Assembly: GCA_964627095.1 (NCBI GenBank)
Contig: CAZVKH010000001.1
Location: 8,451-72,450 of the forward strand
DNA: 64,000 nt
From: an uncultured Candidatus Saccharibacteria bacterium
GTDB taxonomy: Bacteria; Patescibacteriota; Saccharimonadia; Saccharimonadales; JAUPVS01
Direction: 5' to 3'
This document shows positions 1-57,287 of the stretch, piece after piece. Position numbers and translations under genes: made by a program. Every line of letters begins with the position of its first letter. Position 1 is the first letter of the stretch. The notes below the pieces were generated by a model, which saw only the letters and a list, made by a program, of their open reading frames with translations, did not search any database and was not told the origin of the DNA.

Positions 1-849
1 AGACCTGTCGTACTGTATGAATCAGGCGATACTACTACCGAAAACATCTTAATGGCCGCTGCTTGTACACCTGGTGAAACCGTAATCAAGATGGCCAGCG
101 CCAACTACATGGTGCAAGACTTGTGTTTTTACTTGCAAAAAATGGGCGTCAAAATTAGCGGCATCGGTAGTAGCACCTTGCGCGTTCAAGGCTTGAAAGA
201 AATAAAAAAGAATGTCACTTACGCCCCCAGCGAAGACCCGGTTGAAGCCATGACTTTTGTGGCCGCCGCCATTACAACCGACTCCGAAATCACCATCAAA
301 AGAGTGCCGATAGAATTTATGGAATTAGAGTTATTGAAGCTGGAAAAGATGGGCCTTAACTATGTCATGACCAAGACCTACAAAGCCGAGAACGGCCAGA
401 CCGACCTAGTTGACCTAACCATCAAGAAGCACAATGGCAGCCTGATTGCCCCGCACGACAAGATTCACCCCAACATCTTCCCAGGCCTGAATATTGATCA
501 CCTGCCCTACTTTGTGCCCATCGCCGCCGTAGCCAAAGGTCGCACCCTGATTCACGACTGGGTTTACGAAGACCGCGCCCTGATGTATACCGAAATGAAA
601 AAAATTGGCGTCAGCGTCGAGCTAGCCGATCCGCACCGAGTTTATATAGAAGGTCCGACCCGCTTTAAGGCAGCCGACTTAGTTTGCCCCAGCGGTATTC
701 GCCCGGCCGTTATGATTTTGATTGGCATGTTGGCGGCTCCCGGTAACTCGATGCTACGTAACGTCTACACCATCAACCGTGGTTACGAAGATTTGGCCGA
801 TCGTCTGAATTCTTTAGGCGCCAAAATCACCGTTCTACACGAGCTATAG
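1..849 (+). CDS. murA: UDP-N-acetylglucosamine 1-carboxyvinyltransferase MurA, C-terminal part; the gene begins upstream of the window
   Basis: The frame is open from position 1 (RPVVLYESGDTTTENILMAAACTPGET...), and the listed M at 52 is an internal Met. The sequence matches MurA C-terminal domain conservation. Confidence 0.85.
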   Translation, partial: RPVVLYESGDTTTENILMAAACTPGETVIKMASANYMVQDLCFYLQKMGVKISGIGSSTLRVQGLKEIKKNVTYAPSEDPVEAMTFVAAAITTDSEITIKRVPIEFMELELLKLEKMGLNYVMTKTYKAENGQTDLVDLTIKKHNGSLIAPHDKIHPNIFPGLNIDHLPYFVPIAAVAKGRTLIHDWVYEDRALMYTEMKKIGVSVELADPHRVYIEGPTRFKAADLVCPSGIRPAVMILIGMLAAPGNSMLRNVYTINRGYEDLADRLNSLGAKITVLHEL

Positions 850-883: not shown

Positions 884-961
884 TGGGGCGAATGATGGGG
901 ATCGAACCCACTACCTCCGGAACCACAACCCGGCGCTCTAACCAGATGAGCTACATTCGCC
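884..961 (-). tRNA. tRNA-His (GTG)
   Basis: The reverse complement folds as a cloverleaf with anticodon loop ttGTGgt. It has an extra 5' G(-1) opposite the discriminator C and an encoded CCA. Confidence 0.85.
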
Positions 962-1011
962 TTAAACAGGGGTGATTATAGCGCATTAGCGGCATAACAA
1001 CAAGCTGTACA

Positions 1012-9061: not shown

Positions 9062-9508
9062 TTAGTCGAGTGCTCGGGCTTGCTGGATCTGTTGCATGAG
9101 GTGACATTTGTCGCCTCCCTCCTCAAAAATTTCACACGCCACCGGGCGCTCTTCGTAAATTCCGCAGTGCTCCCAGCCGTCTTGATCGGTTTCAAGATAC
9201 TTGCAGTCATTCAGCAATACGTACCGACCAAGATTTGCCGCCAATGGTTCGGTTGGTCGCTCAGGGTCAACATAGTAAGTTTTCATACCTGTTTCGGGGT
9301 CCCATTCAAGACCACGCGGATAGGGTGCATCCGGGCGAGCCTTTGGCGATGGCAAGGGAACCGTCAGAAACTTGTTACCCGGTCGAGTCATAAGGGCGAC
9401 TTCTTGAAATGTCAGATCGAATATTTCGTTAGCCCGGCAGCAAGCCGCTTGACACTCATTGCAGTCGTCAACTGGTTCAGATGAAATTTGGATTGGAATT
9501 CTGGACAT
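9062..9508 (-). CDS. YkgJ/UPF0153-family Cys-cluster protein (putative Fe-S or zinc-binding)
   Basis: The CNECQAACC motif (CxxCxxxCC) plus further Cys/His residues. Leaderless start after AATAAT. Confidence 0.6.
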   Translation of the reverse strand: MSRIPIQISSEPVDDCNECQAACCRANEIFDLTFQEVALMTRPGNKFLTVPLPSPKARPDAPYPRGLEWDPETGMKTYYVDPERPTEPLAANLGRYVLLNDCKYLETDQDGWEHCGIYEERPVACEIFEEGGDKCHLMQQIQQARALD

Positions 9509-9516
9509 ATTCTACG

Positions 9517-9552
9517 ATTATTGAGCCATCTACGGTCGTTTGCAAGCATGAG
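9517..9552 (-). promoter_or_regulatory. promoter: CTCATGCTTGCAA -17 nt- AATAAT -8 nt- ATG (YkgJ-like gene)
   Basis: Direct reading. Second copy of the 12-mer. Confidence 0.55.
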
Positions 9553-9689
9553 AGAATTGGAAGCGACTGCCTGGCGGCACATTTCGTCGCGGGCTCGGTG
9601 CCAGCACCTGCGCGCGCTCCTCATGAGCGCACCTTCGACTACTGTCTGCTGCGCAGCCAAGTCGAAGAACCGGCGTCTTGCTCACTGGC

Positions 9690-9720
9690 AAAGAAAAAGA
9701 GCCATCCTTATGGATGACTC
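9690..9720 (-). terminator. intrinsic terminator after tRNA-Pro (9-bp stem GAGUCAUCC/GGAUGGCUC, loop AUAA, then a U-run)
   Basis: On the minus strand the hairpin is followed by UCUUUUUCUUU immediately 3' of the tRNA. Confidence 0.7.
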
Positions 9721-9728
9721 ATTTTCTT

Positions 9729-9805
9729 TGGTCGGGGTGAAAGGACTCGAACCTTCGACCTCACGGTCCCAAACCGCGCGCGCTAGCCAACTGCGCCACA
9801 CCCCG
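9729..9805 (-). tRNA. tRNA-Pro (TGG)
   Basis: Acceptor CGGGGUG/CACCCCG, anticodon arm CGCGG-uuUGGga-CCGUG, T-arm GGUUCGAGUCC and an encoded CCA. Confidence 0.85.
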
Positions 9806-25241: not shown

Positions 25242-26750
25242 TTAACTTTCGCTGAAGACTTTTTGGACTAATTCAAGTTGCCTTTGGTTAGTCGGATCAA
25301 ACTTAGCCTTAAATACTAGGTCAAGCATCGCCGGGTCGTTTTTATACTTTTCCCAAAATGTGACAACTCGCTGCTTACCCTCTAAGTATGCCAAGTCTTT
25401 GTTAAATGTAAGTAGGTGATGCTCCCCGTCAGAAAGTCTATCATCAACGCTGGTTGGCGTGCCTCTAAATATTCGAACGCAGCCCGCGTAAGTGTTGTTT
25501 TGAGCGGTAGAAATTTGTTTTTCAGTTGGCTCTTCGCCGCTTTGAGCTTTTATCAACACTCGTGCCCGCCAAAGTGTTTCGAATACCTTGCGAAAGTCAT
25601 TTCCTTCGTAAGCTAAACCGTAGGCTGCATATCGCTCCAGATTCGGTGCATCCCAACTCGTATCCTCACCTGTTGTTGCTTTCTCGCAAGTCGAAGCAAA
25701 ACCTTCTTCGAAAGTCAGGTAGTCACTTACTTCGCCAGGTTCGGCAGCCGTGTATAGCCCCGTCCCAACCACCGGAATATCTGTCTCGATGCCACTCATG
25801 GCCCGGCCAGCATGAACTATGTATTCGTGCACTACTTTACTTAACATCTCTTTTGCAGAAGAAATAGGACCACGCTTGCCACCAATTACTACAGCCATCT
25901 GTTCTGTTTCCCAAGAAAGTGCAGTCGCCGATGGGTCGATAAGCACTTGGATTCCAGAACTATTATCAGGGTCACGCTGTTGATGAATAAGACTAAAGAT
26001 AGCGTACATATCATCGACGGTAAAATGCTGTTCTTCCGTCGGTCTTGGCTTAACATTTTCGTCCCAATACCGTAATATAGTCGGCTCAAGATCTGGGTTA
26101 TCGCTCAAGACTTTCTCATCCAGATAATCGAGTAGTTCTTGAGGTAGTGGCTTAAGTGGCTCGGCATCATTACGCTTAAGTGGAGATACGACGATAGATT
26201 TGCCTGCAACTTCTACCACAAAGCCATGTTCTAGCTCTTGCTTGAGTTGTTGCCCAACTCCAACCAACTCCTTGCCATCAATCTGACGCCAAATTTCACT
26301 TACTACGCCAGCGTACAAGTCTTGATCGGGTTTGCCGTACAGCTGTTCGTTCAGGTTTTGAACATAGCTAGCCCGGCGATCAAGTTCGTCTTCTGACATC
26401 GTAAAGTGGCCATCAATAAGTTCTTTGGCGCTTAGCAACCAATACATCTCGGCCATTCGATAAGCTGCGCTGTCCCAAATTGCCTCTTTGGCAGTCTGGT
26501 CGGGCTGCGCCTCGGCTAGTTTTAGAACCTCACCCAGAACAGATATGCCATTTCTTAGTTCGTTTTCATCTAAAACTGGGTAATCAAGGGTGGGGTTAAC
26601 AACATCGCCTGCGAGAAAATCATCTCTTTGTTGAGCCCGCTCATCTTTGTCGCCCGCCAAACGTTTATACGACTGAAATGCGATTTCAGGAGTATTGAGA
26701 GGATGGAGTTGTTCGCGTAGCGAGACTCCTTCAAGAAGTATCTCTGACAT
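25242..26750 (-). CDS. DUF1704/MATCAP-like putative HExxxH metallopeptidase; true start ATG 26750, and the table extension to 26912 is a TTG read-through across the ncRNA
   Basis: HEYIVH (HExxxH) and an EEGFA motif resembling the QEGLA family signature. TATAAT lies 6 nt upstream of ATG 26750. Confidence 0.5.
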   Translation of the reverse strand: MSEILLEGVSLREQLHPLNTPEIAFQSYKRLAGDKDERAQQRDDFLAGDVVNPTLDYPVLDENELRNGISVLGEVLKLAEAQPDQTAKEAIWDSAAYRMAEMYWLLSAKELIDGHFTMSEDELDRRASYVQNLNEQLYGKPDQDLYAGVVSEIWRQIDGKELVGVGQQLKQELEHGFVVEVAGKSIVVSPLKRNDAEPLKPLPQELLDYLDEKVLSDNPDLEPTILRYWDENVKPRPTEEQHFTVDDMYAIFSLIHQQRDPDNSSGIQVLIDPSATALSWETEQMAVVIGGKRGPISSAKEMLSKVVHEYIVHAGRAMSGIETDIPVVGTGLYTAAEPGEVSDYLTFEEGFASTCEKATTGEDTSWDAPNLERYAAYGLAYEGNDFRKVFETLWRARVLIKAQSGEEPTEKQISTAQNNTYAGCVRIFRGTPTSVDDRLSDGEHHLLTFNKDLAYLEGKQRVVTFWEKYKNDPAMLDLVFKAKFDPTNQRQLELVQKVFSES

Positions 26751-26789
26751 ATACATATTATAACATAATAGAATGAGTTTTACGATGCC

Positions 26790-26928
26790 ACTGGGGCAAC
26801 GCACATCTACGGCCTTGCTCGGAATGCATTCCTGCGCATGGCCTTGATGACCGAACCCCGGCTGCGCCGTTTGGGTTCTCGGCGCGTGCTCCATGAAAAA
26901 AGCCGAACACAAGGTTCGACTGTTTTCA
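26790..26928 (-). ncRNA. candidate structured ncRNA, copy 1, immediately 3' of tRNA-Lys on the same strand
   Basis: A 5' hairpin (9-bp stem CCAUGAAAA/UUUUCAUGG enclosing GUCGAAC/GUUCGGC) is followed by a 67-nt imperfect long hairpin. The long hairpin is about 85% identical to copy 2 (53730..53868). The 5' hairpin differs in sequence between copies but keeps its pairing. G-U pairs form only on the minus-strand reading. Confidence 0.55.
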
Positions 26929-27005
26929 TGGAGGGCCCACTGGGACTCGAACCCAGGACACCCTGCTTAAAAGGCAGGTGCTCTAACCGGCTGAGCTATG
27001 GGCCC
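26929..27005 (-). tRNA. tRNA-Lys (TTT)
   Basis: Acceptor GGGCCCA/UGGGCCC, anticodon arm CCUGC-cuUUUaa-GCAGG, T-arm GGGUUCGAGUCCC and an encoded CCA. Confidence 0.85.
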
Positions 27006-53181: not shown

Positions 53182-53715
53182 ATGTCAACTTTTGAACAAG
53201 AACGTCGTTCCCAGATGATCGATATTGCTACCTACCGGCAGATTAAGGAAATCGGCAAAGGCTTGGTGACTTTGTCGGGCGTGGCGTTTTCGGAAAAGCC
53301 CGACTATGACCTTGACCTTACTATAAGCCGCATCACCGACGAAACTTTTGGCGTATTCCCACAAATGGGTTACAAAGTTCGCGTGGCAAGCAAACAAACA
53401 CCGGAGGCAAACCACGAAAACCTATTAATTACCGTCAAAGGTTTTGGAGTAGTCGATAGCGAAGGTGAGCTACTCTACAGACGCAAAGTCGGGATAACAG
53501 TTATCGACCAAGAAGTTAAATATTCGTGGGTAGACCTTTTACTACCGCGTGATGGCAAAACACCAGAGAGAGCTCAGCCACAGAGTCAACTAGAGGCTGG
53601 CATCCGCGAACACTTTGAAGCATGGGAGCATGAAATCAGTGGACGACAATTTTACCTCGACCCGGAAAGCGCCCAAATGCTGATGGCCGAAATTCAGGAA
53701 ATCGCCGAGCTCTAA
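53182..53715 (+). CDS. hypothetical cytoplasmic protein
   Basis: ORF only. No motif recognised. Confidence 0.4.
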   Translation: MSTFEQERRSQMIDIATYRQIKEIGKGLVTLSGVAFSEKPDYDLDLTISRITDETFGVFPQMGYKVRVASKQTPEANHENLLITVKGFGVVDSEGELLYRRKVGITVIDQEVKYSWVDLLLPRDGKTPERAQPQSQLEAGIREHFEAWEHEISGRQFYLDPESAQMLMAEIQEIAEL

Positions 53716-53729
53716 GGCTTTTGGCGGGG

Positions 53730-53868
53730 CAGGGCAACGCACATCTGCAGCCATGCTCGGAATATATTCCTGCGCGTGGCTTTGATGACCGAACCTGGGC
53801 TACGCCCGACGGTTCAAGTCTTCTCTGTGACCAAGAAAAAAGACCCTTCTTGTGAAGAGTCTCTTTTC
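53730..53868 (-). ncRNA. candidate structured ncRNA, copy 2, immediately 3' of the initiator-like tRNA on the same strand
   Basis: 5' hairpin CCAAGAAAA/UUUUCUUGG enclosing AGACUCUUC/GAAGGGUCU, then a long hairpin about 85% identical to copy 1. There is a compensatory G-C to A-U change in the GGCC/GGCC helix. Confidence 0.55.
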
Positions 53869-53944
53869 TTGGTAGCGGGGGCAGGACTCGAACCTGCGAC
53901 CTCGTGGTTATGAGCCACGCGAGCTGCCACTGCTCCACCCCGCG
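53869..53944 (-). tRNA. tRNA-Met (CAT), initiator-like (C1 x U72 unpaired)
   Basis: CGCGGGGUGGAGCAGUGGCAGCUCG...CUCAUAA...GGUUCGAGUCC..CCCCGCUACCA closely resembles bacterial tRNA-fMet. The 1-72 mismatch is retained. Confidence 0.8.
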
Positions 53945-54024
53945 TCGAGTTGAGCAAGCTATAGCATACCAGATGAAAGCTACTTATACAACATCGGTGG
54001 GAAATGTGGTAGAGTATCTTCACT

Positions 54025-54726
54025 ATGACCGATATGCTCGCTCCTTCAGCCGAAGCCGAAAAATTGCCAACAGATGACCCGACAACCATACTAGCACTTG
54101 AAGCACGCGACTTATTACTCGCCGCCAGCCAAGCCGAACCGGGCAGCCCGGATGAGGTAGCCGCCCTAGAGGAAGCCAATAGTCGCTTTAGCGAGCTGGT
54201 TAGCGAAACCCAGGAATTCCTTACCAAATTTGCTCTGAGCCGCCCCCACCCCAGGCATTTTGATGTGCAAGAAGTAGTCCAGGAAACCTACGCCCGAGCC
54301 TATAAGGGTTTACATAATTTTAGGGGTGACGCCAAGTTTTCTACGTGGCTATTTTACGTTTTGCGCAGCTGTACTGATAACTACTGGAGACGCGAGGCAC
54401 GTCACAACAATCAGCCCCTACCCGAAGAAGACGGTTCAGATCCATCCTTGGTTGGTAGTATTGCCGTGGTGTCATCATTAGATACTGGCGAGGTCGACAG
54501 CTTTTTGGACTACAGTAGCCTTTCGCCGGAACTAGAAGCAATGCTGGCCACTTTAAGTCCCAAGCAACAACAAGCTATTCGTATGCATGACGTAATGGGA
54601 CAAACCACTAAAGAATGTGCCGCGCAACTAGGTGTTAGTGAAATTAGTTTTAAGATGAACGTACACCGGGCTCGCCATAACCTACGCCGCGAATTCCCCG
54701 ATGCCAGAAACTGGTTAGAAGAATAA
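54025..54726 (+). CDS. ECF-type RNA polymerase sigma-70-family factor
   Basis: Region 2 (YARAYKGLHNFRGDAKFSTWLFYVLRS) and region 4 HTH (LSPKQQQAIRMHDVMGQTTKECAAQLGVSEISFK). Confidence 0.75.
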   Translation: MTDMLAPSAEAEKLPTDDPTTILALEARDLLLAASQAEPGSPDEVAALEEANSRFSELVSETQEFLTKFALSRPHPRHFDVQEVVQETYARAYKGLHNFRGDAKFSTWLFYVLRSCTDNYWRREARHNNQPLPEEDGSDPSLVGSIAVVSSLDTGEVDSFLDYSSLSPELEAMLATLSPKQQQAIRMHDVMGQTTKECAAQLGVSEISFKMNVHRARHNLRREFPDARNWLEE

Positions 54727-54728
54727 TC

Positions 54729-54756
54729 TTGACAAATTAGCAACTTCATGTATAAT
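54729..54756 (+). promoter_or_regulatory. near-consensus sigma-70 promoter TTGACA-16-TATAAT
   Basis: Read directly. This is the best promoter match in the window. It drives a short transcript that ends at the terminator at 54925. Confidence 0.7.
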
Positions 54757-54814
54757 ACTTAGTGTTGTCATGACAAAACAAACAACAAAATAAAACAACA
54801 GGAAACTACACACA

Positions 54815-54898
54815 ATGAAATCACAACTCGCCTACGAGTTCGCCCAAACCCAAGATCAGGCAGTTTCACAATTTGACGATCTAATCTCATCTTTGTAA
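54815..54898 (+). CDS. candidate 27-aa small protein (MKSQLAYEFAQTQDQAVSQFDDLISSL) or sRNA body
   Basis: AGGAAA lies about 10 nt upstream of the ATG. The unit sits between a consensus promoter and an intrinsic terminator, and it is below the ORF-track cutoff. Confidence 0.35.
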   Translation: MKSQLAYEFAQTQDQAVSQFDDLISSL

Positions 54899-54924
54899 AC
54901 CTACTCGATCAAACTCCCATAAAA

Positions 54925-54956
54925 GAGCCCTTTAAGCGCAAAGGGTTCTTTTTATT
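54925..54956 (+). terminator. intrinsic terminator (GAGCCCUUU-uaagcgca-AAGGGUUC followed by UUUUUAUU)
   Basis: Read directly. Confidence 0.75.
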
Positions 54957-55034
54957 GCCGTTCGCCTTTCAGCTAGCTGGTCAACAGAGGCAAAACATGG
55001 TATATTCACTGCTGTCCATGTAACAAGTTTATAG

Positions 55035-55111
55035 GGCGGCGTAGCTCAGTTGGTTAGAGCACAGGACTCATAAGCCTGGGGTCACAAGTTCAAATCTTGT
55101 CGCCGCTACCA
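55035..55111 (+). tRNA. tRNA-Met (CAT), elongator type
   Basis: GGCGGCGUAGCUCAGUUGGUUAGAGCACAGGACUCAUAAGCCUGGGGUCACAAGUUCAAAUCUUGUCGCCGCUACCA. The 1-72 pair is G-U, and the D and T arms match elongator tRNA-Met. Confidence 0.8.
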
Positions 55112-55167
55112 AACTTATTTGATATCGCTTGTGTTTAACCCCGTTTGGGGTAATAATAAACGGTATT

Positions 55168-55842
55168 ATGGATATGGATCTTAAACCCCCGACGCAGCCC
55201 AAATATCAGCTTAAGGAAACTCCGCCACCCGGCGCAACGCCACCTGAACCGCAGATGGACGACCCCTTTAAAGTTGATCCGCCACCACCCGAACTAACCG
55301 TACCTAAACCAAAGAAAAAACGCAGCGGCAAAGCTAAAAAGGCTTTGCTGGTTATTTTAGTATTGGCTCTGCTTGGTGCGGCCGGCTATGGTATTTACTA
55401 CTGGCAACACCAGCAAGTCGACAAACTAGCTAAAGAAAACCAGGCTCTAACCGCCCAACTAGCTGCCGCCAATAAAAAAGCTAGTGATGCCGAAGCCGAG
55501 AACGCCAAGCTTAGCGAAGCAGCCACCCCGCCAACGGCCGATACTTTGGTAATTACGGCTGCTACCGCCGATTGCCAGGCCGAGGTTGACCCAGCCACTA
55601 AGAAGGCTTTGGTATACACCCAAGGCACGCAAGGCACTGACAAAAAGAAAGTGCTGTATTCGACTGATAAGACCTTTGCCAAGGTTAGCGCTACCTGTGC
55701 TGCCACCGCTAACGCCACCGAGCCAGCCACGCTGTACTATGCTAAATTAGCCGGTACTACCTGGACGGTCATCTATGCTGACACCGCCGAGCCCGACGCC
55801 GACGTAACTGCTTTGTACGCCATCCCAACTGAATTCAAATAA
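55168..55842 (+). CDS. single-pass membrane protein with Pro-rich cytoplasmic N-terminus, coiled coil and Cys-containing extracellular domain
   Basis: TM helix ALLVILVLALLGAAGYGIYYW. Start set at ATG 55168 (the table ORF starts earlier, inside the tRNA trailer). Confidence 0.5.
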   Translation: MDMDLKPPTQPKYQLKETPPPGATPPEPQMDDPFKVDPPPPELTVPKPKKKRSGKAKKALLVILVLALLGAAGYGIYYWQHQQVDKLAKENQALTAQLAAANKKASDAEAENAKLSEAATPPTADTLVITAATADCQAEVDPATKKALVYTQGTQGTDKKKVLYSTDKTFAKVSATCAATANATEPATLYYAKLAGTTWTVIYADTAEPDADVTALYAIPTEFK

Positions 55843-55891
55843 AAGAACCGGCCTCTGGAAGCCGGTTCTTAATTTTACGTTAACTCTTTAA

Positions 55892-56296
55892 TTAAGAGTC
55901 TTCGCGTAGCTCGCCACCATGAACGATCAATGCGTAAAGCACCAATACGTCGATCAGGATGGCAGCGAGTGACCAGACTGGGTAGGCTGGAATAAACGCC
56001 ATGCTAGTCAGCAATGATACAGTTGTCACGATAACGGCAACGATGCGACCAAACAAGTGGCCCGAAAGTACCGAGAAACCAGCGAACAATAGAATCATCG
56101 CCAAAACTAGTTGACCCCAGCCCCAAGCTGTAAAGTTAAAGACTGCTAGGTGCTGTTCGGTAACAACGTAGAATGAACTACGAGTTAATGAAACGATGCC
56201 CAGGAATGCCTCGAAAAAGGCGCGCACGATCAGAAGTATACCGGCAAAGTATACCCAGCCGACCCATCCAGATGGTTGTGTTGTTGGTTTAGCCAT
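55892..56296 (-). CDS. hypothetical four-helix membrane protein
   Basis: Hydrophobic ORF. No motif recognised. Confidence 0.45.
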   Translation of the reverse strand: MAKPTTQPSGWVGWVYFAGILLIVRAFFEAFLGIVSLTRSSFYVVTEQHLAVFNFTAWGWGQLVLAMILLFAGFSVLSGHLFGRIVAVIVTTVSLLTSMAFIPAYPVWSLAAILIDVLVLYALIVHGGELREDS

Positions 56297-56361
56297 AAAA
56301 GCCCTCCTTAGTTGATGATTAAATCATCTCGCTTACTGGAATTTTTGTCAAGGAAGTTGCC

Positions 56362-56676
56362 TTAACGCTTATGCTTTTCAGTATGAGATTCGGCACGGGC
56401 TTGCATTTTTTGACCACGCTTCTTTACAAAGGCGTTTATAAAGGCACCAAAAATAGCAATTCCTAGCAGAATGTAGATGGTCGTAAATAACTTACCGGCA
56501 TCGGTTTTGGGCGTAATGTCGCCATACCCAACAGTGGTTAGGGTGACGATGCAAAAATAGTAGGCATCGACCCAGCCCCACTTTTCGACAAAGTGATAGA
56601 AAGCCATGCCAACCCCCAACACTGCGAAAGTAATGGTTAGTAGTAGCCTGTACATATAGCGGTCAAGTGGGTTCAT
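56362..56676 (-). CDS. minimal two-TM potassium-channel-family protein
   Basis: Selectivity filter TTVGYGD between two hydrophobic helices. 104 aa. Confidence 0.8.
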   Translation of the reverse strand: MNPLDRYMYRLLLTITFAVLGVGMAFYHFVEKWGWVDAYYFCIVTLTTVGYGDITPKTDAGKLFTTIYILLGIAIFGAFINAFVKKRGQKMQARAESHTEKHKR

Positions 56677-56691
56677 TGGTTTCTCCTGTAA

Positions 56692-57150
56692 TTATTTATC
56701 TGTCTGGCGATGTTGGAAAAAGTCCATCCAGGCTTGAAAGTTGCGCTGGAAAGTCGATACTACCACAGCTGGCTGAGCGGCCTTATTTTGCTCTTTGGAC
56801 ATATCAACAGTGTTGGCCAGCGCCACCCGCTTGGGCACCAAAACCAGTTTTTCATTAGGGGCGGCCTTGCCGAACTGGCGCCGGGCGGCTAGTTCCAGGA
56901 ATTGGTTGGTATTGTAGTACTGATTGGCTAGCTTTTGGTTATTATTCTGGAGATCCAGCACCTGGTTTTCTTGCTGTATAGCCGAGATTTGCTTTTGCAG
57001 GCCGTAGTTAGTCTGAATAGCCGAGATTGTACTCCAGCTTACTAACAGGGCAATGCCGGCAAAGATTAAAAGCCCCACCACGCGCACGTCTTGGAGTTGC
57101 TTAAAATAGGGATGGTTTTGGATATTTTTGATTTTACTGTTCATGAACAT
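56692..57150 (-). CDS. FtsB/DivIC-family septum formation initiator
   Basis: N-terminal TM, a coiled coil (ISAIQQENQVLDLQNNNQKLANQ), then FLELAARRQFGKAAPNEKLV. Confidence 0.6.
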   Translation of the reverse strand: MFMNSKIKNIQNHPYFKQLQDVRVVGLLIFAGIALLVSWSTISAIQTNYGLQKQISAIQQENQVLDLQNNNQKLANQYYNTNQFLELAARRQFGKAAPNEKLVLVPKRVALANTVDMSKEQNKAAQPAVVVSTFQRNFQAWMDFFQHRQTDK

Positions 57151-57211
57151 TTTTATTATACAATCCTTTGCCCAAAATCTGCTATACTCACTCTGTTAAT
57201 ACCACGACCAC

Positions 57212-57287
57212 GGGGGTGTAGCTCATCGGTCAGAGCAGGCGGCTCATAACCGCTTGGTAGATGGTTCAACTCCATCCACCCCCACCA
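57212..57287 (+). tRNA. tRNA-Ile2-like (CAT; probable lysidine substrate)
   Basis: GGGGGUGUAGCUCAUCGGUCAGAGCAGGCGGCUCAUAACCGCUUGGUAGAUGGUUCAACUCCAUCCACCCCCACCA. Its anticodon arm is near-identical to E. coli tRNA-Ile(LAU), and tilS is present in the window. Confidence 0.7.

Follow-up and report, generated by a model that had tools for sequence, protein, structure and literature searches.

A hairpin element embedded in partial tRNA duplicates behind Saccharibacteria tRNA genes, a candidate miniature tRNA-targeting insertion element

The DNA considered here is a stretch of 64,000 nucleotides (nt), hereafter the window, from an uncultured Candidatus Saccharibacteria bacterium (assembly GCA_964627095.1, contig CAZVKH010000001.1, positions 8,451 to 72,450 of the forward strand), in which ARAGORN identifies eight tRNA genes. 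Directly 3' of one of these, a tRNA-Met(CAT) gene on the minus strand, lies a short non-coding element whose conserved core is embedded in a second, partial copy of the tRNA, and the same core recurs behind other tRNA genes of the window and of related bacteria. With a probability of roughly 55%, we read this element as a miniature, non-autonomous insertion or integration element that targets tRNA genes, whose insertion duplicates the 3' part of the tRNA and whose hairpin is a cis-acting part recognised as a folded single strand. tRNA genes are classic landing sites of mobile DNA, the known users being kilobase-sized islands with their own integrase, and Saccharibacteria have tiny genomes that are thought to be poor in repeated or mobile DNA.

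Read along the minus strand, the locus behind tRNA-Met (window copy w2) comprises the following parts, where P1, P2 and P3 denote paired regions and CM a covariance model.

53870..53944, minus strand: tRNA-Met(CAT), initiator-like, with C1 opposite U72; the intact, putative target gene (ARAGORN; Rfam tRNA, 62 bits; sequence).
53830-53873, minus strand: two-tier hairpin with one G-U pair, ACCAAGAAAAGAGACTCTTC-ACA-AGAAGGGTCTTTTTTCTTGGT, which includes the ACCA of the tRNA and has a U tract at its end (fold).
53820-53829, minus strand: spacer of 10 nt.
53811..53819, minus strand: 5' strand of P1, ACTTGAACC, an inverted copy of the tRNA T-loop/T-stem (8/9 against the reverse complement of GGTTCGAGT).
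53796..53810, minus strand: P1a, a small variable hairpin, GGGC-GUA-GCCC, within P1 (fold).
53790..53799, minus strand: 3' strand of P1, CCCAGGTTCG, a partial repeat, in direct orientation, of the T-stem 5' strand with the four bases that open the T loop (GCAGGTTCG in the tRNA).
53736..53789, minus strand: conserved core of 54 nt (CM match, 90 bits; covariation; 87% identity to copy 1).
53718..53735, minus strand: decayed direct copy of the tRNA 3' end, GCCCTGCCCC-GCCAAAAG (GCCCTGCCCCGCCAAAAG), against GTCCTGCCCCCGCTACCAAGAAAAG in the tRNA.

The short hairpin GAACC..GGTTC spans 53790-53819 on the minus strand, and the P1a that it encloses varies in sequence and length at every locus, from 3 to about 35 nt. 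The core is laid out as GTCATC-AA-(hairpin P3, with a conserved internal loop GCA/GA)-GCA-GATG-TGCGTT, in which P2 is formed by (G)TCATC and GATG.GC. The T-loop DNA sequence of the tRNA is GGTTCGAGTCC. On the other side of the element lies a convergent plus-strand gene (53182-53715) with its stop codon at 53713-53715. The window holds three tRNA(CAT) genes within 3.5 kb (53870-57287), the initiator-like gene being accompanied by two others (55035-55111 and 57212-57287) that presumably correspond to elongator Met and Ile2.

The relationship between the core and the neighbouring tRNA is best seen outside the window, in loci referred to below by L numbers. On its 3' side, the core is followed by a direct repeat of the end of the upstream tRNA, made up of T-stem 3' strand, acceptor 3' strand and CCA. 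This copy is perfect over 13-17 nt in L003/L009 (CTGCCCAGGGTACCA), L004/L010 (CTTGCCGGGGGTACCA), L006 (CGGCCTCCGGAGCCA) and the tRNA-Arg(tct) locus of L011 (AGCTCGGGGCACC), matches at 17/18 positions behind tRNA-Pro of L011, and has decayed in w1, w2, w3, L002, L005, L007 and L008. On its 5' side, the core is preceded by a copy of the T-stem 5' strand followed by TTCG. In L004, L011-Pro and L044-Pro, this pre-core copy matches the local tRNA over 9-13 nt, the local T-loop variant included: GCAAGTTCG in L004 carries the unusual GCAAG stem of its own tRNA, L044-Pro has the GGTTTG variant of the local tRNA, and 13-14 nt of AGGTCGAAGGTTCG in L011-Pro are identical to positions 44-57 of tRNA-Pro. 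The core is therefore positioned at T-loop positions 57-59 of a second, partial tRNA copy, with the same border in eight tRNA species. The 5' strand of P1 is an inverted copy of the T arm and pairs with the direct copy (ACTTGAACC with ACTCGAACC in w2; GGTGGATGAGAACCAG with GCTGGATTCGAACCAG in L011). The repeat is longest in L044-Pro, where it extends across a duplicated terminator and 8 nt of flanking sequence and totals about 95 nt. Overall, the core behaves as a discrete unit common to all loci, whereas its surroundings are those of each local tRNA; with time, the displaced tail of the tRNA decays, and hairpin pairing is held by compensatory changes. The copies in L008 hold CAGG/CCTGC while its own tRNA-Met now reads GGAGG/CCTCC, indicating that they are relics that do not track the tRNA. 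The location of the module inside a partial duplicate of the tRNA's own 3' part points to an insertion or integration of DNA. This embedding is a new observation, absent from the earlier description of the locus (hereafter, the original prediction), which was made from the window sequence.

Two further copies are present in the window, both on the minus strand.

26783..26933, minus strand: copy 1 (w1), behind tRNA-Lys (26929-27005); terminator 26889-26933, P1 26852-26880, core 26798-26851, remnant GCCCCAGTGGCATCG 26783-26797.
9560..9732, minus strand: copy 3 (w3), divergent, behind tRNA-Pro(tgg) (9729-9805); terminator 9689-9732, P1 CTTCGACT/AGTCGAAG 9630-9667, core about 9577-9629.

Copy 1 has its parts in the same order as w2. 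The two cores (54 nt each) show seven differences, and the first hairpin, spacer, P1a and tail are not alignable between them. A degenerate 30-mer of the core matches the window only at these two copies (0.00 matches expected from 100 shuffles), and the CM scores w2 and copy 1 at 90 and 82 bits (E about 1e-22 and 1e-20). Copy 3, also spotted by eye, is matched by the CM at 9562-9639 with 59 bits; its hairpin tip has GGUGC/GCACC in place of GGAAU/AUUCC, and its tRNA remnant is nearly erased, the ortholog in the close relative L041 retaining GTCGCTTTCACCCCG. No copy beyond these three was detected in the 64-kb window by the CM with filters off, and all three lie 3' of tRNAs on the tRNA strand. 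The original prediction had counted two copies, one too few; the hairpins of w2 and the likeness to copy 1 that it reported are both present in the sequence.

Copies outside the window were sought with an exact pattern (one genome per species), a looser pattern applied to metagenomes, and then a CM built from 12 sequences. The exact pattern recovered the core in two Candidatus Saccharibacteria metagenome-assembled genomes, the looser one yielded nine metagenome loci, and the CM added copies in L011 and in syntenic contigs reached through ClpC homologues. The sigma-factor neighbour proved useless as a synteny anchor, its single close homologue being on a 1.4-kb contig. In total, 18 distinct copies were identified, all on Saccharibacteria contigs, beside a tRNA gene or pseudo-tRNA, and associated with eight tRNA species (Met(i), Lys, Pro, Asn, His, Arg-CCT, Arg-TCT and Arg-TCG). 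tRNA genes outside the window do carry the module, as it had been suggested to check, and the similarity is not confined to two loci, which, together with a lack of transcription, had been named as grounds for abandoning the original prediction. The copies lie 3' of the tRNA on the tRNA strand, with a few exceptions. L007 is found behind a degenerate pseudo-tRNA-Lys; in L004/L010, L008, L041/L042 and L011 at tRNA-Pro, the contig or the fetched stretch ends too early to include the tRNA in full; and L001, beside an inverted tRNA-Ala/Ile pair, is the sole copy not behind a co-oriented tRNA. Regarding L001 (2140-2450), its tail ATACCCCCATCAAAATAAGTTAAA differs at one position from the reverse-complemented stretch, 270 nt away, of the tRNA-Ile 5' end and Ala-Ile spacer, which mimics an acceptor 3' strand with ACCA. 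The T-arm copy of L001, AGTGGTTCG, corresponds to the one found in the Arg(tct)-type element.

As far as sampled, the family appears to be confined to one Saccharibacteria clade. A second CM (18 sequences), run over about 300 kb of Saccharibacteria DNA, brought up no additional copy, and the surveyed tRNA loci of more distant Saccharibacteria were devoid of copies, both in L046, L047 and L049-L051 (ClpC identity <=73% to the window) and in L048 (79%). Viral contigs gave 0 matches with the strict pattern; with the loose pattern they gave 29, all of which were chance or coding matches (mostly ATGACCGAAC gene starts) scoring <=17 bits with the CM. BLAST searches against phage records and plasmids returned no match, and no matching description of the element was found in Rfam or in the literature searched. 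A conserved stretch unrelated to the element emerged from the loose pattern in the viral contigs L015, L016, L019, L033 and L038; it consists of tandem GTAGCACATTCGT-like repeats, a TATAAT motif and a G+C-rich, hairpin-forming sequence.

Comparison of syntenic loci revealed both empty and occupied sites. The spacing between tRNA-Arg(tct) and tRNA-His is about 51-60 nt in L041, L043, L044, L045 and the window (51 nt in the latter), all of which are empty at this position. At the same place, L011 contains approximately 165 extra nt (terminator, P1, core and repeat), and a native flank resembling that of the window resumes behind the second repeat. Similarly, in L043 tRNA-Pro and tRNA-His are followed by nothing but a terminator, and these sites are filled in L044, L045, L011 and the window. 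One copy carries cargo. In L011 (52-124 of region 1-703, minus strand), a variant core and its remnant CTTGCCGGGTGTACCA lie about 570 nt behind tRNA-Arg(tcg), from which they are separated by a promoter-like TATAAT, an open reading frame (ORF) of about 110 amino acids (aa) whose sequence is hydrophobic and membrane-protein-like by eye, and a second terminator. The inner hairpin of this copy differs, and its remnant is closer to the tail of tRNA-Arg(tct) in L004 (15/16) than to the local tRNA (12/16). When copy 1 is compared with the syntenic L005, the upstream genes through to the tRNA, terminator and P1 are nearly identical (one substitution in about 130 nt); divergence starts at the first bases of the core and continues through the downstream gene, beyond which the genes are 83-99% identical. 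The variable gene itself (window 25242-26747, minus strand, against L005 1370-2686), located right at the outer border of the element, shows 23% identity, with a match, weak or strong, to the MATCAP peptidase family PF08014.

DNA integration into tRNA genes has an established footprint, whose classes reportedly go back to Williams (2002). Integration into a tRNA gene leaves one complete and one partial tRNA copy (PMC9897764). The present loci display this footprint, with a complete tRNA followed by a displaced, direct partial 3' copy, empty sites in relatives where the native flank resumes, and occasional cargo, and the element is hence read as tRNA-targeting. Insertion or integration into the T-loop/3' region would duplicate the 3' part of the tRNA and so retain a working tRNA gene, as in tRNA-integrating islands. 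On the tRNA strand, the parts stand in the order intact tRNA, terminator, inverted copy of the 5' half of the T arm, variable hairpin, direct copy of the 5' half of the T arm (..GGTTCG), core, and copy of the rest of the tRNA. An enzyme acting in trans, putatively a recombinase or transposase, would carry out the insertion, unless DNA taken up by the cell is inserted by homologous (Campbell-type) recombination. As the cis-acting part, the hairpin would be recognised as a folded single strand, and it may also be expressed as RNA. A more specific proposal, in which the 54-nt hairpin is the active part of a new kind of T-loop-specific mobile element and the tRNA 3' part is duplicated in direct and inverted form by the insertion mechanism itself, appears quite unlikely; the routes envisaged for such an insertion would be a single-strand (hairpin-recognising) recombinase, templated repair after a cut in the T loop, or an RNA/cDNA route.

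Several observations weigh against a tRNA-targeting element. No integrase, transposase or reverse transcriptase gene adjoins any copy, the neighbours being housekeeping genes, and 17 of the 18 copies have no room for an integrase gene. A PHROG scan of 64 window ORFs gave no integrase or transposase among the 25 of 64 matched families listed; among the matches listed, the only transposition-related ones were weak "DNA transposition protein" matches accompanying AAA+ ATPase matches. No autonomous parent or partner was found in about 300 kb of Saccharibacteria DNA or in phage and plasmid collections. The repeat ranges from about 13 to about 95 nt, unlike a fixed target-site duplication, and ordinary recombination between attP and attB would leave an uninterrupted partial tRNA, predicting neither the inverted T-arm copy nor the T-loop position of the core. 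With a gap between terminator and core of about 60-110 nt in most copies, a double-stranded circular intermediate would be very small. The w2/L008 insertion is old and vertically inherited, giving no sign of current mobility. Finally, the conservation of a core whose flanks decay could equally reflect a host function.

Structural support for the core is comparative rather than thermodynamic. The whole 148-nt stretch folds better than all of 200 shuffles (z = -4.3, 0/200 as good), mostly through the contribution of the terminator hairpin, and the core region alone is no more stable than shuffled sequences (z = -1.3; 24/200 equally stable). In a MAFFT alignment of 12 copies, 90% of the cells of P2 (GUCAUC/GAUG.GC) and P3 are paired and six pairs change on both sides; the paired fraction, the counts of double changes and the covariation score all exceeded those of every one of 500 shuffles. 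In the 18-sequence alignment, which was fitted to the model and is hence biased toward the structure, 13 of the 17 pairs change on both sides and pairing amounts to 88%, against 24-45% in slid controls. The covariation supports the hairpin of the core. The apical loop is free to vary, and conservation is found in the internal loop GCA/GA and in the flanking single-stranded GGUUCG..AA and UGCG. For P1 (GAACC/GGUUC), a table read by hand, which replaced an automatic G-U-tolerant partner search that caught the terminator U tracts, showed the five basal pairs to be retained in 11-14 of 14 copies, including changes from C-G to U-A; variants include GAACUUG/CAAGUUC in L004 and GAGCU/AGUUC in L011. 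Wobbles favour neither strand, with 20 GU against 16 AC, each dominated by one conserved site (a U.G in P2, and in P3a a C.A that becomes U.G if read on the other strand) and the remainder split 4 to 4. The core is also near-palindromic (GTCATCAARGCCAYGC .. GCAWGGCYGYAGATGTGC), and its halves could act as inverted repeats, an arrangement indistinguishable from a plain hairpin. Pairing of the T-stem 5' and 3' copies across the core was dismissed, since changes in w1, w2, L003 and L006 break these pairs and P1 is kept. In searches of the window with Rfam 15, only tRNAs were reported at the gathering threshold; at E<10, no match fell on the core, and far-below-threshold matches were confined to the terminator hairpin and the tRNA. 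A hammerhead-like reading by eye of the plus-strand UGAUGA..GAA was rejected: it has no CUGAUGA/GAAA core, and the permissive Rfam scan was silent.

The first hairpin lies outside the conserved module and is the intrinsic, bidirectional terminator of tRNA-Met. It consists of the stem AGACUCUUC/GAAGGGUCU followed by the U tract UUUUUCUU at the end of the tRNA transcription unit (53830-53873), and it comes directly after the tRNA 3' end, pairing with it and overlapping its ACCA. An A tract on its 5' side matches the U tract on its 3' side, making the terminator bidirectional; pairing between these two tracts let it escape a simple terminator scanner. The counterpart hairpin at copy 1 scored as terminator-like on both strands. 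Terminator sequences are specific to each locus, those of copy 1 and w2 being unrelated, and at orthologous loci (w2/L008; tRNA-His of L043/L044) the stem is preserved through compensating changes. The same type of hairpin follows tRNAs that have no module, namely tRNA-His of the window and tRNA-Pro and tRNA-His of L043. The core itself does not look like a terminator, its hairpin being followed in all copies by GATGTGCGTT, with no U tract. On the plus strand, the element is located between the stop codon of the gene 53182-53715 and the sole terminator-like hairpin, so that the mRNA of this gene should read through the element in antisense. These findings modify the original prediction in several respects. 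The 5' hairpin, regarded as a module part with an equivalent fold in both copies, is the tRNA's own terminator; the contention that the element is not a one-off terminator holds for the conserved part and fails for the first hairpin, which is precisely that; and the statement that the element is not linked to any mRNA is inaccurate, given the convergent gene. As for the proposed mobile or duplicated RNA module, movement or duplication between tRNA loci finds support in the 18 copies and the empty sites. The module may be an RNA, but on the tRNA strand a strong terminator precedes the core, no promoter-like site lies between the two, and the wobbles favour neither strand.

Other explanations of the element have to be weighed against the same observations. 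It might above all be a structured small RNA, arising from read-through of the tRNA terminator as a 3' trailer or transcribed from the opposite strand and ending at the bidirectional terminator, the tRNA-like flanks being traces of copying. In its favour are the strong covariation of P2 and P3, the conserved internal loop and the freely varying apical loop; between w2 and L008, the core has also stayed conserved, unlike the terminator interior, P1a and the tRNA remnant; moreover, a plus-strand terminator follows the element, which in w2, L003 and L004 lies in the 3' untranslated region of a convergent gene. It is possible, if on balance unlikely, since there is no Rfam match even at E<10, no promoter-like site was found between terminator and core in copy 1 or w2, and a strong terminator precedes the core on the tRNA strand. 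In addition, the expression context is inconsistent between loci, wobble pairs favour no strand, the core alone does not exceed shuffles in stability, and the partial tRNA copies, empty sites and cargo would be left unexplained. We consider it improbable that the copies are joined attL and attR remains of integrase-borne islands whose interior was deleted under genome reduction, that is, relics resembling cis-mobilizable elements (CIME-like) with the core as the integrase-binding P arm of attP. Independent deletions would not give the same minimal layout in 17 of the 18 copies, double-stranded arm sites need no hairpin, yet the stems covary, and the core lies within the T loop of the partial tRNA, which it splits rather than adjoins; one core is found at eight tRNA species, although integrase families are usually site-specific, and no integrase was seen among the neighbours or the listed PHROG matches. 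The intact tRNA with a partial 3' copy is nonetheless the classical signature of such islands (PMC9897764), one copy has cargo, and tRNA 3' flanks are hot spots, as illustrated by an HNH ORF in L042 and by ORFs between tRNA-Arg and tRNA-His in L046, L047, L049, L050 and L051.

The arrangement of a conserved scaffold followed by a variable segment of 13-18 nt identical to a target is also reminiscent of a guide RNA (TnpB omega/reRNA- or homing CRISPR RNA-like), in which the tRNA-matching segment would steer a nuclease or recombinase encoded in trans and the T loop would be the adjacent motif, TTCGA standing immediately 5' of the target in the intact tRNA. However, the supposed guide has decayed in at least seven copies (w1, w2, w3, L002, L005, L007 and L008) with the scaffold conserved, that of L008 ignores the changes in its own tRNA, the intact neighbouring tRNA would be a self-target, and no TnpB, IscB or Cas gene or other effector occurs among the neighbours or the listed PHROG matches, which makes a guide very improbable. 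Lastly, there is next to no chance that the loci merely combine tRNA terminators with fortuitous similarity: the first hairpin is indeed just a terminator, but for the core this is excluded by the uniqueness of the 30-mer, the CM scores and the covariation. A casposon-like origin or one with fixed target-site duplication was discarded, as the repeat length varies and target-specific sequence is also found inside the insert. The same applies to an IS200/IS605-like organization with the terminator as left-end hairpin and the core as right-end hairpin; the spacings fit, but the left part is not conserved between copies.

Among known systems, the candidate tRNA-targeting element resembles the islands, prophages and integrative and conjugative elements integrated in tRNA genes (attL/attR; PMC9897764). 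Shared features include an intact tRNA at one end of the insert and, at the other, a direct copy of part of its 3' region, a T-loop/3'-end sublocation, empty sites in relatives, and a terminator after the regenerated tRNA. In contrast to these islands, the insert measures no more than about 100-170 bp, or 570 bp where it holds one ORF, and is devoid of an integrase; the partial tRNA is split in its T loop by a conserved hairpin and has an inverted copy of the T arm in front of it. Its tiny size, its lack of a recombinase, the occurrence of a single core family at eight tRNA species, the copy of the T arm in inverted orientation and a hairpin that breaks the partial tRNA exactly in the T loop are all non-standard for tRNA integration. 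Miniature inverted-repeat transposable elements (MITEs) and small palindromic repeats (REP/BIME with RAYT, IS200/IS605-derived PATEs, Correia, RPE) likewise consist of non-coding imperfect palindromes, here of about 54 nt, with several copies per genome, proximity to terminators, covarying stems, and mobility presumably mediated by a protein encoded elsewhere. They differ from the present element by its strict T-loop context, its few copies (3 in 64 kb) and the duplication of the 3' part of the target gene; nor was a partner transposase or RAYT found, or a clear fixed target-site duplication, GTC being present on both sides in many copies in a manner not consistent with the local tRNA.

With integron attC sites, the element has in common a hairpin defined by conserved paired boxes rather than by sequence, a variable apical part, asymmetric unpaired bases and the possibility of small cassettes, and the GAACC/GGTTC base of P1 (GAAC/GTTC) resembles the AAC/GTT of the R''/R' boxes. 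The boxes (..GAACC / GGTTCGG, GTTCGG) do not, however, conform to the R-box consensus RYYYAAC/GTTRRRY, there is no intI, attI or cassette array, the copies are single and tRNA-linked, and P1 can be just 13 nt. Small RNAs from the 3' external transcribed spacer (3'ETS) of tRNAs (e.g., 3'ETS-leuZ), GOLLD and ROOL are also structured non-coding sequences 3' of or beside tRNA genes, but here a strong terminator separates the tRNA from the element, no Rfam match exists, and size and structure are unrelated.

If a T-loop-specific element of this kind exists, it could colonise any essential single-copy tRNA gene without killing it. It would represent a minimal, gene-less element using the universal T loop as its address at eight tRNA species and leaving a footprint of direct and inverted partial tRNA copies. 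Should the mechanism prove new, it would bear on the tolerance of essential single-copy genes to insertion and on tRNA 3' flanks as hot spots of gene exchange in ultra-small bacteria; should the hairpin instead be a functional RNA, it would found a new RNA family of the candidate phyla radiation. In practical terms, such tRNA fragments can confuse the annotation of tRNA genes.

The genes around the copies are ordinary and include SHMT, threonine synthase, NDK, an ECF sigma factor and a DsbD-like protein. The genes that follow copies 1 and 3 have TATAAT/TAGAAT boxes about 2-7 nt before their ATG (26747-26765 and 9508-9525, minus strand), leaving no room for a Shine-Dalgarno sequence and thus suggesting leaderless mRNAs. 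In L048 (1-3760), an island with a large serine recombinase (Resolvase/Recombinase domains) and AbiTii is found upstream of sortase/Tat genes, where relatives have tRNA-Pro; this island has no copy of the core.

Other variation was noticed around the same tRNA genes. L041 and L042 have identical ClpC, and L042 (9160-9717, against 9079-9131 in L041) carries, immediately behind tRNA-Arg(tct), 550 nt of inserted DNA with an HNH-endonuclease-like ORF; its tRNA-Arg(tct) differs from the T loop on, a different tRNA-His follows, and the whole looks like homing with co-conversion starting in the T loop. The body of tRNA-His (acceptor stem and T arm) is wholly different between the window (884-960) and L041 (9131-9207), whose ClpC is 93% identical, and the promoter and terminator flanks are conserved, which suggests an allelic replacement of the tRNA gene. 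The spacer between tRNA-Arg(tct) and tRNA-His is an insertion hot spot: it measures 51 nt in the window (961-1011) and 0.5-2.4 kb in the more distant Saccharibacteria L046, L047, L049, L050 and L051, where it hosts unrelated ORFs, from one to three in number (RRM, DUF1801, BPSS1860-like and others). L047 also has its upstream tRNA-Gly in inverted orientation.

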